Assembly (NCBI GenBank): GCA_963764165.1
Contig: CAVXRD010000002.1
Location: 1,536,001-1,600,000, forward strand
Source: an uncultured Verrucomicrobiae bacterium
Lineage (GTDB): Bacteria > Verrucomicrobiota > Verrucomicrobiia > Limisphaerales > Palsa-1400
Reading direction: 5' to 3'
DNA length: 64,000 nt
Shown here piece after piece: positions 20,692 to 26,538 of the stretch. The translations under genes were made by a program, and so were the position numbers. The notes under the pieces are model-generated. The model worked only from the letters and a program-made list of their open reading frames with translations, was not told the origin of the DNA and did no database searches. The first letter of the stretch is position 1, and the number at the start of each line of letters is the position of its first letter.

Positions 20692-20927
20692 ATTCGTGTG
20701 GCTTTAATGTCGTAACTTTCGGATACGGACCGCCAACTGGGATTTTTTCGGGATCCAAATTACGAACCGAGTTTGGATCCGGATAATTTTCGGACCAAGG
20801 CGCGAGTCTCTTCGCCTCAGATCGAGCCCAAGCAAGCCACTCCAATTGTTCCGGCGACGGACCGACCGCCGCACCACCGCGCCAATGTTTCTCCACCACA
20901 TCGACAAAAGCGAGAACGCGTTCGCTG
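20630..20927 (-). pseudogene. C-terminal gene fragment joined to the truncated TROVE gene
   Basis: Protein-like WLAWARSEAKRL...YPDP segment directly after the TROVE breakpoint. Confidence 0.35.
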
Positions 20928-21494
20928 GGCGAGGCGGAGTAAGTCGCCGTGCGACCAACCGTCGCGCTGCTGATACTTCACCGCCTGGTGCGCGAGATCG
21001 TCGGCATCACGGTAAATGTACCAGTCGCCCACGGCGTTGCGCAGACCACGGCCCCAGCCGCGCATGGCATTCACGTATTCGGCGAAGTGGAACAGGTGCG
21101 TGCCAATGCGGCAGACCTTGTTCAAGTTCGCAAACGCGTGCGCCTTCGCCTGGGCGTCACCGTGCGTGACGGCGAGCGCCAAGCCGAAGATGGCCGAATC
21201 GTTCTTGGGCGCGCGGCCGGCATCACTGATCTCAACGATGCGGTTCGCAGCGCGAACGCCATCCGCCTTGATGCAACGGATAATCGCGTCGTGGTTCTGT
21301 TTCACGAGATCGCGTTCCGCGATGTAATACGTGCCACCTTCGGCGCCGAGGATCAGGAAACGGTCAAGCCGCGTCCAGTCATCCACTTCCCAGGAAAAGC
21401 CGCCGCCGGAGTTGCGAACCTGGGTCGAACCCGGGATCGGCTGCGACTGAGGCGTAATGCGGCGGTTGAACTGACGTGCGTAATTGATAGCCAT
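20817..21494 (-). pseudogene. rsr: Ro60/TROVE-domain RNA-binding protein, 3'-truncated near 20927
   Basis: NSGGGFSW, RLDRFLILG, GTYY, GRAPK, CRIGTHLF, GWGRGLR, KYQQRDGWSHGDLLRLA, then similarity stops; GGAGG RBS. Confidence 0.88.
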
Positions 21495-21641: not shown

Positions 21642-21895
21642 TTATTTTATTCGCGGAAAAAAGTGGTTCCGCTCTCGGCCATCATAACGGCCTGTTTGCA
21701 TGCAGCATTTCTTGAAAGCTGCGTCCGGATCCGCAGGGACACGGGTCGTTGCGACCGAGCTTCTCGCGAAGCTCTTTGTTCGCATGCACGATTTGGAATC
21801 CTTTCTTGACTCGAGTCTCAGAGGGGAAACCTTTGCGACGTTTGCTGGTGATTTCGAAAAAAAGGCCCGTCATGTTCGTTTGATGTATTTGCCAT
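21642..21895 (-). CDS. SEC-C zinc-finger protein split across reading frames by +1 shifts
   Basis: AAGGAGG RBS before ATG at 21895; [16 protein letters not shown] in one frame, KKCC in the next. Confidence 0.7.
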
Positions 21896-22731: not shown

Positions 22732-22872
22732 CGACGGATAAAAAACGAACTGGGAGTTTACGTGCTCTACCGCTGAGCTACTCCGGGTGTTAGCACACGG
22801 CCAACGCCAGAGGCTGGACTCGAACCAGCGACCGCGTCCTTATCAAGGATAACCCAATCCTGCGACCCGTCG
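22732..22872 (-). ncRNA. yrlA: YrlA-type tRNA-like Y RNA
   Basis: Closing stem CGACGG/CCGUCG; T arm (GCUGGUUCGAGUCCAGC) precedes D arm (GCUCAGCGGUAGAGC), the permuted order typical of YrlA. Confidence 0.8.
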
Positions 22873-22894
22873 AAAATGTCGGCGCAAATAATCT

Positions 22895-23007
22895 GACGGA
22901 CAAGGAGCGAGTTGGGTCGTCAGCCAGTTGCCTGACTGCGCGGAAGTCGAATCCGCTCATCCTGCAGAACAGGACTTTACCAGATAACCCAATATCATCG
23001 GCCCGTC
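22895..23007 (-). ncRNA. Y RNA-like
   Basis: GACGGGCCGAUG...UUGGGUUAUC...CCAA...CUUGUCCGUC; internal T-arm-like GCGGAUUCGACUUCCGC. Confidence 0.7.
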
Positions 23008-23013
23008 GTAAAT

Positions 23014-23091
23014 TGGACACTCCCGATGGGAATCGAACCCACATTTTCCGACCTAAAGCCGGACGTTCTCTCGCAGTTGAACTACGGGGTG
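23014..23091 (-). tRNA. tRNA-like gene with anticodon TTA (ochre-suppressor-like or degenerate)
   Basis: Cloverleaf; stem TCCGG/TCGGA, loop CTTTAGG; TTCGATT T loop; encoded CCA; bulged acceptor stem. Confidence 0.7.
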
Positions 23092-23095
23092 GTCA

Positions 23096-23223
23096 GATGG
23101 GCAAGTGGCGTGATCGAACGGAGGCACTCCATGCCGGGAATCGAACCCGGACCGCCAAGGCTTTCGCCACGGACGGTACACCCTCCTTATTTGTGGAAGA
23201 TAATCGATCAACTTCGGCCCATC
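23096..23223 (-). ncRNA. Y RNA-like with internal T arm
   Basis: GAUGGGCCGAAG...AUUAUC...CUUGCCCAUC; CCGGGUUCGAUUCCCGG. Confidence 0.7.
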
Positions 23224-23227
23224 AAAA

Positions 23228-23303
23228 TGGTCAGGGCGACGGGATTCGCACCCGCACAGTCCGCGTCACAGGCGGAGATGCTCACTATTACATCACGACC
23301 CTG
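23228..23303 (-). tRNA. tRNA-His(GTG), atypical
   Basis: TCCGC-CTGTGAC-GCGGA; CCA end. Confidence 0.8.
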
Positions 23304-23307
23304 GAAA

Positions 23308-23383
23308 TGGAGCCCCTGGTCGGACTCGCACCGACGTTTACGAGTTTACGAAACTCGCCCTGTTGCTTCTGAGGCACAGGGGC
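23308..23383 (-). tRNA. tRNA-Thr(CGT), atypical
   Basis: CGAGT-TTCGTAA-ACTCG; acceptor GCCCCTG/CAGGGGC; CCA. Confidence 0.85.
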
Positions 23384-23391
23384 TGACAAAA

Positions 23392-23469
23392 TGGTGTCCG
23401 CGGCAGGACTCGCGCCTGCGACCTTCACCTTCGCAAGGTGACGCTCTGATCTAACTGAGCTACGCGGAC
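23392..23469 (-). tRNA. tRNA-Arg(GCG)
   Basis: TCACC-TTGCGAA-GGTGA; acceptor GTCCGCG/CGCGGAC; CCA. Confidence 0.85.
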
Positions 23470-23484
23470 AAATTGATTTGAAAA

Positions 23485-23595
23485 TGGCATCCGTGATCGG
23501 ACTTGCACCGAGTGCTTGCGCACGGCGACCAGTCCGGCTTGAAGGGCCAGTCGCTCGAGGGGTGGCCGTGCGCAAGCACCTTTGCATTCACGGAC
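23485..23595 (-). tRNA. tRNA-Glu(TTC) with two micro-element insertions
   Basis: CTGGC-CCTTCAA-GCCGG; acceptor GTCCGTG/CACGGAT; inserts in the D and variable regions. Confidence 0.7.
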
Positions 23596-23675
23596 GAAAT
23601 CCTCCAGGGAAGAGAACGCGACGTCGCCGCTCGCAGGCGGGCCTTAACGTTGTGCGCTCTCCTCTCTGGTAAAAA

Positions 23676-23750
23676 TGGCCCCTGAGGTCGGTATTGCGCC
23701 AACGTCTCTTCGTCTTCAGCGAAGCGCTAATCTGCCTCAGCTACTCAGGG
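23676..23750 (-). tRNA. tRNA-Phe(GAA), atypical
   Basis: CTTCG-CTGAAGA-CGAAG; acceptor CCCTGAG/CTCAGGG; CCA. Confidence 0.82.
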
Positions 23751-23789
23751 GTGCTTGCGCACGGCCACCATTGCGCACGATCAAGTTTA

Positions 23790-23864
23790 TGGTCGTCCCG
23801 CACGGTAACGCTCCGCGGTCTTCCGGTTATCAGCCGGGCGCTCTTCTTTTGAGCTACGAGAACG
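23790..23864 (-). tRNA. tRNA-Ile(GAT), atypical
   Basis: CCCGG-CTGATAA-CCGGA; D stem GCTC/GAGC; CCA. Confidence 0.8.
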
Positions 23865-24079
23865 TGAAAAGTGATGTCGTGCTCGGCCTTCGCTGAATCA
23901 CGAATCGTTGGTCAATTGAGGTTTAATGCCGAAGCGATTGACCGGCCGAAACACGAGGTTCCACTTCGCAATCGGTCGGATTCGAATGGTTCGGCGCGGC
24001 TTGTAACTTCGCCGGTAGAGAAGGTGGCTCTGGAAACGGTTAACGGGTTTCATGGTATTCCTTTCGTTGATGTTGAATT

Positions 24080-24202
24080 TGGCGGAAGGGTCTTGGCAGA
24101 CGGCCACCGGGTAACGCTCCGACCTCCGGTTTGAGCGGATTCTGTTTTCGGGACAGGCGCAGCCACGTGCTCGCGCACGGCCACAATATCTGCTTGCAGT
24201 CC
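24080..24202 (-). tRNA. tRNA-Ser(CGA), degenerate, with two micro-element insertions
   Basis: CTGT-CCCGAAA-ACAG, long variable arm; two alternative GCCA ends (24094 and 24080). Confidence 0.55.
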
Positions 24203-24248
24203 GCAAAACTGACTTTCAAACGATTTTCTGTCCATTAAGATTTCTGCG

Positions 24249-24369
24249 TGGCGAAGGGGAAGGGTCCGGCTTCCGAAAGGAAGCTTCCAGAGGCCGCGAG
24301 GCTGACCGAGCCCAGGGACTTGGGCACCGTTTGCGGAAATAGGATCAGGCGCAGACAATACCTTCGTCA
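24249..24369 (+). ncRNA. Unknown multi-stem structured element antisense to the tRNA array
   Basis: 9-bp closing stem, two GNRA-capped hairpins; all G-U wobbles work on the + strand. Confidence 0.5.
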
Positions 24370-24398
24370 TAATCGTATCGGGCAAAAAGTTATCGAAT

Positions 24399-24472
24399 TG
24401 GCTGCCAGACTTGGACTCGCACCAAGACAAGCGGCTTAACAGGCCGCCGTGCTACTTTGACACCACCTGGCA
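24399..24472 (-). tRNA. tRNA-Asn(GTT)
   Basis: GCGGC-CTGTTAA-GCCGC; G discriminator; CCA. Confidence 0.85.
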
Positions 24473-24479
24473 AATGCAG

Positions 24480-24617
24480 TGGCGCTGCCGGCAGGATTGA
24501 CTTCCCAAGTCCTGCAAGTCAGGTGCCCACATAAACATGTTCGCTATCGCGAACCGCAGTCTCACCTGCATCGTTCCGCTTAGAAGGCGGATGCCTCGTA
24601 TATTCGACCACGGCAGC
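24480..24617 (-). tRNA. tRNA-Arg(TCT) with a ~62-nt insertion in the T loop
   Basis: TCCGC-CTTCTAA-GCGGA; acceptor GCTGCCG/CGGCAGC; T stem GCAGG/CCTGC split by the insert. Confidence 0.75.
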
Positions 24618-24622
24618 AGAAA

Positions 24623-24714
24623 TGGTCGGAATGGCAGGATTTTCACCTGCTTGGCCGTCTGCAAAGACCCTCCCGGTCCCAGGCCGGGCGCTCTTAAGAC
24701 TGAGCTACATTCCG
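24623..24714 (-). tRNA. tRNA-Pro(TGG) with a micro-element in the variable loop
   Basis: CCCGG-CCTGGGA-CCGGG; acceptor CGGAATG/CATTCCG; CCA. Confidence 0.8.
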
Positions 24715-24721
24715 TGAAGAA

Positions 24722-24797
24722 TGGCGGACCTGAAGGGAGTTGCACCCTCAACCCTCCCGCAGACAACGGGGCGCTCCGCTGATTGAGCTACGAGTCC
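24722..24797 (-). tRNA. tRNA-Asp(GTC), atypical
   Basis: CCCG-TTGTCTG-CGGG; GCCA end. Confidence 0.8.
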
Positions 24798-24806
24798 GAA
24801 ATGAAA

Positions 24807-24896
24807 TGGTGGGAAACGCTGGTAATGCTCCAGTTCGTCACTTCCAGTTTTGTTTTGCGACACCCGATTTACAGTCGGGCAACTGGATCGCTTCCC
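24807..24896 (-). tRNA. tRNA-Tyr(GTA), D arm nearly absent, enlarged variable arm
   Basis: CCCGA-CTGTAAA-TCGGG; acceptor GGGAAGC/GTTTCCC; ACCA. Confidence 0.75.
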
Positions 24897-24904
24897 TTGA
24901 AAAA

Positions 24905-24982
24905 TGGTAGCGGGAGTGGGAGTCAAACCCACCTGAAGAAGTTTATGAGGCTTCTCTCTGTGCGTCGGTCGAGTTTCCCGCA
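24905..24982 (-). tRNA. tRNA with CAT anticodon (Met; unpaired 1:72 as in initiators)
   Basis: Loop CTCATAA; acceptor TGCGGGA/TCCCGCT; ACCA. Confidence 0.72.
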
Positions 24983-24993
24983 ATCAAATAAAA

Positions 24994-25068
24994 TGGTGGA
25001 GTCGGTGGGTAATGCTCCCACATAACCTTGCTTGCAGGGCAAGTGCATTGCTTGTCTGCCACGACCCC
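24994..25068 (-). tRNA. tRNA-Ala(TGC)
   Basis: CTTGC-CCTGCAA-GCAAG; G3-U70 identity pair retained. Confidence 0.85.
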
Positions 25069-25075
25069 CGAAGAT

Positions 25076-25147
25076 TGGCAGGCTGCCTCCGTGCTGCCCG
25101 GAGTGAGCTGAGTTTTGGAGACTCGGCTGCGTGCTGACGCTCAGCCT
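25076..25147 (-). tRNA. tRNA-Trp(CCA), atypical
   Basis: GAGT-CTCCAAA-ACTC; AGGCTG/CAGCCT; GCCA. Confidence 0.75.
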
Positions 25148-25156
25148 GTGAAGAAT

Positions 25157-25230
25157 TGGTGCGGCTGCCGGGAGTTGCACCCGGACAATCGGCCTGGCAG
25201 GACGACATTCTGCTGTTAAATCACAGCCGC
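25157..25230 (-). tRNA. tRNA-Gly(GCC), atypical
   Basis: Loop CTGCCAG; acceptor GCGGCTG/CAGCCGC; CCA. Confidence 0.82.
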
Positions 25231-25575
25231 GGAAAGTAAGAGAGCCAGGAGCATCATTGCGCTCCTGGCTCTTGCCATTTCAATAAAGAACAAACACCTC
25301 TTGCTAGCTTGCGCTACCAACCCGCGGTTTCACGGCGGCTGTTTCGGTGTTTAGAGGCACACCTCCTGGGAAGCCTTTAGATTGTAAAATTCTTTTTTCT
25401 AGGCCTGGCGTAGCTAGCGACGATTGATAGACATGGACCATCGGTGACCAGCTATAGCTCGTCTTCGCTATTTTAAATTTGCTGCCAGAGGACATCATCT
25501 AGATGTCACGCTTTCTATGTTCACAGACTCACTAACCTTTCGTTATTCGCTTTTCATTTCGTCGGTTACGCAGGG

Positions 25576-25610
25576 AAAACAAAAACCCTGCTTACTTTCG
25601 CAAGCAGGGT
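25576..25610 (-). terminator. Intrinsic terminator (attenuator) upstream of the tRNA array
   Basis: ACCCTGCTTGC-GAAA-GTAAGCAGGGT followed by TTTTGTTTT. Confidence 0.85.
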
Positions 25611-25634
25611 GGAGAAAAGGTCTATTTCAGTTCA

Positions 25635-25805
25635 TCACCTGCTTACAGCCAGTCTATCCGGATTGCCTTCGGTTTGTTTCCCGATCGAGGCCAAGGATAG
25701 TCCAAGGCTAAACACATAGCCCTGGTTGCACCGGCTATGACGTGTCGCCTTCGCGACTCGCATTGTCGGCCAATTCGTGGCTGATATGTTTAAGCAAGTT
25801 TTCAT
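25635..25805 (-). CDS. Putative 56-aa attenuator leader peptide
   Basis: MKTCLNISATNWPTMRVAKATRHSRCNQGYVFSLGLSLASIGKQTEGNPDRLAVSR; last codons overlap an antiterminator strand. Confidence 0.65.
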   Translation of the reverse strand: MKTCLNISATNWPTMRVAKATRHSRCNQGYVFSLGLSLASIGKQTEGNPDRLAVSR

Positions 25806-25932
25806 TGAACGTGTAAGACATGTAGCATAGCTCCTAGGTTACACGCAAGTAGTTTTTTAAAGTATTTTCTAGCAATGTCAGATTGAAGTATCCGGATTGA
25901 TTGATGGAATAGGGGCTTTGCTCGCAAAAAAG

Positions 25933-26538
25933 CTAGACCCGCAGATCAAAGGTGATGCCAGTCGGCCCAGCATTGATGACCGTTGTTGCGCCGAGCTGGG
26001 CGCGTTGGCCGGCGCTGGCATGGATATGCCCGCAAACCACTAAGGGCGGCTCCAAGCGCAAAATTGCATCGCGGACTGCCGTGCTGCCGAGGCTCCGACC
26101 CGACGAATCTTCGTCAACAAAGCGTTTCGGCGGCGAATGCGAAACCAGGACGGCCTTGGCCGGACAGGCGGAAAGCAATCGTTCTGCATCTTGCTCCGAA
26201 AAATCCCAACTCCAGCTCCCAAAAGGCGTCACCGGCACTCCGCCACCGAGGCCGAAAAACGTCACGCCATCGATCTCCACGCTCGTCGCCTGCAAAACGT
26301 GCGCGCTCTTCCAGTTCTTACAGGCGGCAACCAACTCTTCGTAAGATTCATTATTGCCCGCGACCAGGACCGCGGGGATGGGAATGTTGGCGAGAACATC
26401 AATGCAGCTCGAAACGTCTCGTCGCACGCTCGCAAAATCGCCAGCGCCAACAACGACATCGGCCCCGCGCGCCAGTTCGACAATCCGGGCCGCAGCCGCT
26501 CTGTCTCGGTGTAGATCGCTGAATAAAAACAGTTTCAT
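25933..26538 (-). CDS. Icc-like metallophosphoesterase
   Basis: FSDLH, GAGDF, AGNNE, VSHSPP, CGHIH, INAG. Confidence 0.88.
   Translation of the reverse strand: MKLFLFSDLHRDRAAAARIVELARGADVVVGAGDFASVRRDVSSCIDVLANIPIPAVLVAGNNESYEELVAACKNWKSAHVLQATSVEIDGVTFFGLGGGVPVTPFGSWSWDFSEQDAERLLSACPAKAVLVSHSPPKRFVDEDSSGRSLGSTAVRDAILRLEPPLVVCGHIHASAGQRAQLGATTVINAGPTGITFDLRV

Follow-up and report, generated by a model that had tools for sequence, protein, structure and literature searches.

A conserved attenuator-type leader with a putative tRNA-pool-sensing reading frame precedes a tRNA array in Limisphaerales

The tRNA array carried on the minus strand of the 64,000-nucleotide stretch of DNA analyzed here (hereafter, the window) is preceded by a real, conserved leader of the attenuator type, the mechanism of which we infer from sequence. 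The leader displays the features of a ribosome-mediated attenuator, namely a conserved short open reading frame (uORF1) at its 5′ end, a terminator ahead of the genes, and an exclusive antiterminator overlapping the path of the ribosome. Taken together, comparative analyses and modeled folding point to uORF1 and its terminator/antiterminator as a transcription attenuator through which a translating ribosome would sense the whole tRNA pool, a reading to which we assign a probability of roughly 0.75.

Codon and anticodon-class content of uORF1

Recounting of uORF1 (25635..25805, minus strand) agreed with its description in the original prediction: read from 25805 to 25635, the 56-codon frame encodes a peptide containing all 20 amino acids by means of 44 distinct codons, with Arg specified by five different codons, Leu by five different codons and Thr by all four. 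The most-used codon occurs no more than three times. A hand estimate had placed the expectation for 56 uniform draws at about 37 distinct codons; the computed mean was 36.8 [P(≥44) = 0.0024]. The corresponding values were a mean of 36.2 (P = 0.0009) under a base-composition null, and a mean of 39.4 (P = 0.023) under a synonymous null applied to uORF1's own peptide. No other frame reached 44 distinct codons, either among 1,941 GC-matched ATG ORFs of 56-70 codons from the same genome or among 6,537 genome ORFs of similar size.

The codons absent from uORF1 are mostly U/C partners of codons that are present. When NNU and NNC codons were merged, yielding 45 anticodon classes, uORF1 covered 41 of them vs 31.2 ± 2.2 under the null (p≈1e-5), the highest coverage among the 6,537 similar genome ORFs, with a runner-up at 37 classes. 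The missing classes are CCA, CCY, GAG and GCA; the array of the same genome carries Pro-TGG and Ala-TGC, yet uORF1 is devoid of CCA and GCA. All 45 classes are covered by a housekeeping set of 46 tRNA genes located outside the array, a count that takes three CAT genes as Met and Ile-ATA. The proposal that uORF1 samples nearly the whole codon table was thus borne out as far as the excess is concerned and refined as to the sampled unit, the sequence data supporting the anticodon class rather than the codon. uORF1 matched no Pfam or NCBIfam family, and the leader matched no Rfam family at gathering score or at E<=5; nor did any curated covariance model for T-boxes, or for Rfam riboswitches or leaders, match it.

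Conservation and distribution of the leader

At the DNA level, the leader was found in 22 of 31 genomes from its family, its own genome included. The close loci amounted to 36 distinct ones, of which 33 were complete and three, cut by contig ends, were left out. All 33 complete close homologs keep the start codon, the frame and a stop located just after the antiterminator strand; their indels are in-frame, and the two other frames are closed in every one of them. Within the order, covariance model R1 gave matches, often short and weak ones, in 60 of 151 genomes; at E<=1e-6 it matched none of the 150 other genomes of the phylum sample. Each of the 42 further model matches analyzed carries an ORF of 42-61 codons at the model start; partial matches (L124 and L142-L144) and weak short R1 matches were left out of the leader analysis. 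Eighty distinct leaders, nearly all from Limisphaerales, were collected in this manner, with ORF lengths of 42-61 codons (56 codons in 47 of them).

Named records with a close leader belong to Verrucomicrobia, several of them to Limisphaerales. Records titled as other phyla were rejected as an indication of host range, two of them carrying the uORF of same-family genomes and the third being a 3.3-kb contig. Searched as DNA outside the order, the array returned merely single short matches, in 3/400. In viral contigs, none of 105 pattern matches was a uORF1 relative, and the motif of uORF2 (see below) was unmatched. None of the 24 RNA runs listed reached half of the stretch's words, the best share being 0.11; in four RNA runs, contigs from relatives span parts of the leader and array, contigs that lack ends and levels and may hold DNA, and that were therefore given no weight as evidence.

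Promoter-like site, switch segments and terminator

A promoter-like site (TTGCGT, 18 nt, TG-C-TACATG) lies upstream of uORF1 at 25819..25848 (minus strand) and is missed by a strict consensus promoter scan. A -35-like hexamer starts 42-43 nt 5′ of the start codon in 61 of the 80 leaders, and Shine-Dalgarno-like words at -16..-4 were found in 0/80, two observations which together suggest a near-leaderless mRNA with a predicted transcription start about 6-8 nt before the uORF1 ATG.

Segment 1 (codons 3-5; 25791..25799, minus strand), found in both the MFE fold and the consensus fold, is predicted to pair with segment 2, the antiterminator strand, which consists of the last codons and the stop (25636..25646, minus strand) and can pair alternatively with segment 3. 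The last codons had been claimed to be complementary to the 5′ arm of a GAAA-capped, U-tailed terminator about 25 nt downstream. This complementarity was confirmed: GTAAGCAGGTG (25646-25636) is complementary to CACCCTGCTTGC, and the stem of the intrinsic terminator begins at 25610, 24 nt after the uORF1 stop. The terminator (25575..25610, minus strand), ACCCTGCTTGC-GAAA-GTAAGCAGGGT followed by a U tract, comprises segment 3 (25610-25600), the GAAA loop, segment 4 (25595-25585) and the U tract. The distance from stop to stem is 22-34 nt in 79 of the 80 leaders.

Helix 2:3 was 99% paired over 33 sequences, with slid controls at 27-53%, and one of its pairs was changed on both sides in five sequences; the column of this compensated pair covaries within the terminator too. 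In the terminator helix, 100% of cells were paired and two pairs had both sides changed. Helix 1:2, which is predicted to cover the start region once the leader has been made, had 95.8% of cells paired and two pairs changed on both sides, each in one sequence. The check put forward with the original prediction, a conserved uORF with a covarying terminator and antiterminator, thus found the uORF, its stop and the 2:3 and 3:4 pairings to be kept, and compensated changes in the switch helices to be few.

Folding of the switch

uORF1 is strongly structured (z -5.7), and the consensus fold of the leader consists of helix 1:2 (codons 3-5 with the last codons) and the terminator. When the transcript was cut before segment 4, helix 2:3 of the window's leader formed with the ribosomal P site at any tested codon up to 50; with a ribosome mask from codon 52 on, it formed in 0-1 of 33 sequences. 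Being stronger than 1:2 (-16.4 vs -11.5 kcal/mol), 2:3 still won in 26 of the 33 in the absence of a ribosome. Modeled in this way, the leader reproduces the logic that had been proposed, whereby a ribosome at the stop would mask the antiterminator. On the full transcript at equilibrium, the terminator won at every ribosome position (mean 0.84-1.0), implying that the choice between the two states has to be made kinetically; folding of the full leader at equilibrium showed no switching and was rejected as a model of that decision. The outcome of a start-codon knockout is not predictable from these folds.

Class coverage and downstream cargo

The class-coverage metric was chosen after the close homologs had been seen and was fixed before the distant ones were found, so that the later, distant set alone represents a fresh test. 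Leaders were considered array-linked when at least three tRNAs lay within 5 kb downstream and were scored against a composition-matched null; 10 of the 80 leaders, with less than 2.5 kb of downstream sequence, were left unclassified. All 48 array-linked leaders scored above expectation (z >0; mean 2.89; 43 above 1.64), and the excess of codon diversity anticipated at homologous array loci was thus found, in frame. Mean z was 1.59 for leaders followed by one or two tRNAs (n=7) and 0.53 for those with no tRNA downstream, which precede RtcB, MFS or other genes (n=15). Out-of-frame triplets of the array leaders averaged 0.40, and uORF2 at the same loci 0.50 (40 array-linked cases). The excess given the peptide was z 2.01 vs 0.19. 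NNY classes were filled to 15.4/16 vs 13.5, and U/C duplicates were avoided (4.5 vs 5.8), the pattern expected if tRNAs, and not codons, are counted.

Five array-linked leaders sharing 7-18% of codons with each other harbor 35-40 classes (z 1.7-3.4; combined z 5.7); when the best ORF was decayed at random until 30% of its codons remained, 32.1 classes were left. Among leaders less than 30% identical to that of the window, comparison of the five array-linked ones with 15 others gave p=8e-4, and p 0.0014-0.0019 upon removal of two to three outliers. All 20 amino acids are encoded in 39 of the 48 array-linked leaders; CGA, CCA and GAG are missing from 39, 32 and 31 of the 48, respectively. Two array-linked leaders, L113 and L114, are ordinary, with 32 classes each, and 8 of 22 non-array copies still score above z 1.64. 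The non-array copies often occupy long branches and may just be in overall decay. Kin among the leaders are not independent: a tree-based test over well-supported branches retained six independent array/non-array pairs, with 4.4 in the same direction and 0.1 in the opposite one (median p 0.125), and was not significant at three thresholds. Single-copy classes were more conserved than others (0.76 vs 0.61), a difference confounded by position and structure and hence left out of the argument.

The genome of the window itself carries three copies of the leader, located before the array (41 classes), before an RtcB-family ligase gene (33 classes, 56 codons; G000:C1:1408542-1408773, plus strand) and before an MFS transporter gene followed by an ImpB/MucB/SamB-family gene (22 classes, 51 codons; C1:1113941-1114155, minus strand). 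As a whole, the sequence comparisons provide good comparative evidence that tRNA-class coverage is maintained where tRNA arrays follow.

Proposed mechanism and alternative explanations

The comparative tests and the ribosome-mask folding both support the proposal that the leader operates by ribosome-mediated attenuation. Transcription would start a few bases before the ATG, and a single ribosome would trail the polymerase. A ribosome arriving in time at around codon 52 would cover segment 2, allowing the terminator to form and the array to remain off. An earlier hold-up, caused by cleavage, lack of charging or lack of modification of one tRNA type or by a poison of elongation, would leave segment 2 to capture segment 3, and this 2:3 pairing would let the polymerase continue in the direction of the spare tRNAs and Y RNAs. 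Once the leader is finished, helix 1:2 would close it and limit re-initiation, and uORF2 together with the second hairpin may constitute a second gate. With one codon per tRNA, merely a short delay is to be expected unless depletion is severe.

A more specific proposal, to which we give even odds, is that the leader evolved as a checksum on the tRNA pool, with approximately one codon per anticodon class. The loss of almost any tRNA, for instance through the anticodon nuclease of a competitor, a phage or a toxin-antitoxin system, would stall the first ribosome and release replacement tRNAs alongside Y RNA/Ro60 or RtcB repair. Class coverage itself would be under selection, which would be relaxed where other genes follow.

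The leader might instead be a general elongation-speed or antibiotic-sensing attenuator of the whiB7 or toiL type, the varied codons of which provide drug-specific stall contexts with tRNA coverage as a by-product. This we consider unlikely, even though leader paralogs precede MFS transporters and RtcB, toiL stalls ribosomes at different positions for at least five antibiotic classes (PMC12121999), the Anabaena tRNA array is induced on impaired translation (PMC8421152), and structure as strong as that of uORF1 would slow ribosomes. The MFS-linked paralogs, which would be the likeliest drug sensors, have ordinary or low coverage (22, 28 and 26 classes), and the excess is present at the synonymous level and follows wobble classes. 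Antibiotic sensing is not exclusive of a tRNA-pool sensor, as antibiotics would trip the same switch.

Appreciably less probable is that uORF1 inherited its codon richness by chance and has kept it because RNA structure constrains the sequence, the leader in fact responding to a ligand, a protein or the nascent peptide. Minority bases spread over all three uORF1 codon positions (176/163/231) imply weak peptide-level selection and strong nucleotide-level constraint, and are compatible with such an origin, as are the conserved inner helices, the close kinship of most homologs and the non-significant pair test. An accident of this kind does not readily account for an excess that is confined to in-frame triplets and survives the change of more than 80% of codons, or for the retention of frame, length and stop position, and the leader is without a match to any Rfam family. 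Finally, the leader could be an independent gene for a small RNA or peptide, ended by a terminator of its own, and the array could be driven by a separate promoter. This would fit the strong terminator and the second ORF and hairpin found before the tRNAs, but is hardly credible given that the terminator arm has its complement in the last codons and the two change together, that no sigma-70-type promoter was called in 25200-26100 by a strict scan (which misses the upstream site too), and that coverage depends on downstream cargo.

Relation to known systems

In the amino-acid operon attenuators trpL, hisL, thrL and ilvL, four segments engage in 1:2, 2:3 and 3:4 pairing, the position of the ribosome decides termination, and codons are repeated for one to three amino acids. 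The uORF1 leader resembles leaders of the trp/his/thr type in its predicted segment pairing and ribosome-position logic, but differs from them in that repeats are avoided, the ORF is 56 codons long, a Shine-Dalgarno-like word is missing and segment 2 resides in the last codons. It contains no run of codons for the product of the operon, the cargo being tRNA rather than biosynthesis genes.

Closer in its breadth of input is the mycobacterial whiB7 leader, in which a uORF coupled to a Rho-independent terminator/antiterminator senses general translation stress and, more precisely, depletion of the amino acids encoded in the uORF (PMC10274678). The whiB7 uORF of M. smegmatis encodes 19 amino acids, all but Cys, and removal of a codon abolishes the response to the cognate amino acid (PMC10274678). 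The array leaders share with whiB7 a broad amino-acid content and the terminator/antiterminator. whiB7 uORFs, however, are rich in Ala (25-40%), differ from species to species and regulate a transcription factor (PMC10274678), whereas uORF1 contains 5 Ala among 56 codons, array leaders keep synonymous class-level coverage, and tRNAs, RtcB or MFS genes rather than whiB7 lie downstream. Loss of the start codon raises whiB7 expression (PMC10274678); helix 1:2 leaves the corresponding outcome uncertain for uORF1. The toiL leader of the E. coli topAI-yjhQ operon is alike in that many stall positions converge on one output, making it a multipurpose sensor, and differs in relying on translational attenuation coupled to Rho termination, in having been studied with antibiotics and in its toxin-antitoxin cargo (PMC12121999). 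By the features tested, the leader is not a member of the whiB7 or toiL family.

With respect to cargo, the locus is reminiscent of the trn operon of Anabaena and other long arrays of supernumerary tRNAs, which have been listed for Verrucomicrobia as well (PMC8421152, PMC10272220). In Anabaena, translation stress induces the array, which shares its regulation with rtcB, but the regulator is the repressor TrcR; neither of the two main texts contains the word 'attenuation' or 'leader' (PMC8421152, PMC10272220). Mycobacterial polycysteine sORF attenuators likewise place a leaderless short ORF as ribosome sensor at the head of an operon, but respond to one amino acid and control a downstream ribosome-binding site (10.1101/834739). 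The literature searched, with most subscription papers and supplements lying outside it, contains no report of the uORF1 leader or of codon-class-saturated attenuators with tRNA cargo.

Among the literature found, the switching-on of cryptic tRNA arrays is known for the repressor-controlled Anabaena case alone. The uORF1 leader would offer a cis-acting route in which each tRNA class corresponds to one or two recodable codons and, if its inferred function is true, a ready-made one-element reporter of tRNAs that are cleaved or are defective in charging or modification. Selection for maximal diversity of decoding classes within a short ORF would also be unusual, and such ORFs can be scanned for in any genome.

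Elements downstream of the leader

The proposed layout of an attenuator placed before a tRNA array stood, but a third helix had been missed, as had a second ORF and hairpin. The second ORF, uORF2 (25304..25498, minus strand; 64 codons), has a conserved structured 3′ half and no codon-class excess. Its 3′ motif follows 72 of the 80 leaders, with an in-frame ATG ORF of 54-67 codons in 57. In the divergent loci L112, L117, L121, L123, L126, L135 and L137, the motif is shifted by one base from the frame of the usual peptide and may be kept there as RNA rather than as peptide. The 3′ half of uORF2 (25290-25385, minus strand), for which no Rfam match was found, also occurs in three relatives as dispersed copies of approximately 90 nt lacking a leader or a sensible ORF (L173-L176, L178, L180-L182; five in genome G007), which suggests a mobile or independently used RNA element. 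It has the deepest contigs in three of the four RNA runs, these contigs deriving from relatives and possibly holding DNA. The second hairpin (25231..25272, minus strand), with a pyrimidine/U tail, lies just before the first tRNA. Its stem is kept in homologs and its loops are variable; 11 folds revealed no consistent alternative pairing or antiterminator. It is possibly a second terminator or a processing stem, and could still block read-through.

The array proper (22758..25230, minus strand) comprises 9-12 called tRNAs, degenerate ones and two Y-RNA-like elements. The figure of 17 tRNAs given in the original prediction was not upheld: ARAGORN called 9 (12 at relaxed score) and Rfam 11, and the 17 matches to a T-arm pattern include two inside a Y-RNA-like element. 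As in other long tRNA arrays, the extra tRNAs are redundant to the full housekeeping set. The Y RNAs expected downstream are Y-RNA-like matches (23091-23225 and 22758-22837, minus strand) that both fall below Rfam gathering scores (48.8 vs 80 and 32.6 vs 69). Read-through into Ro60, the last of the predicted cargoes, does not apply to a working protein in this genome: the Ro60/TROVE gene (20817..21494, minus strand; PF05731, E 3e-19), located 1.3 kb past the array and beyond an opposite-strand ORF, is truncated, its match ending at residue 211 of a 592-residue relative with no remainder in the assembly. Ro60 is full-length in two relatives (563 and 592 residues).

Many array tRNAs (22826-25180, minus strand) carry G rather than U at T-loop position 55, the loops reading GTGC or GAGC, and several are lengthened or interrupted by inserts (24623-24714, 24500-24620 and 23540-23770, minus strand), among which is a short repeated element between tRNA-like genes. 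A tRNA-like gene at 23019-23091 (minus strand), also present in L008, was assigned the anticodon TTA (stop) by ARAGORN. The array further harbors a 51-codon Arg/Pro-rich ORF (23898-24053, minus strand) that has a strong ribosome-binding site and matches neither Pfam nor NCBIfam. A gene for a small SEC-C motif protein (21682-21873, minus strand) is situated between the array and the Ro60 gene; a SEC-C protein follows RtcB in L091.
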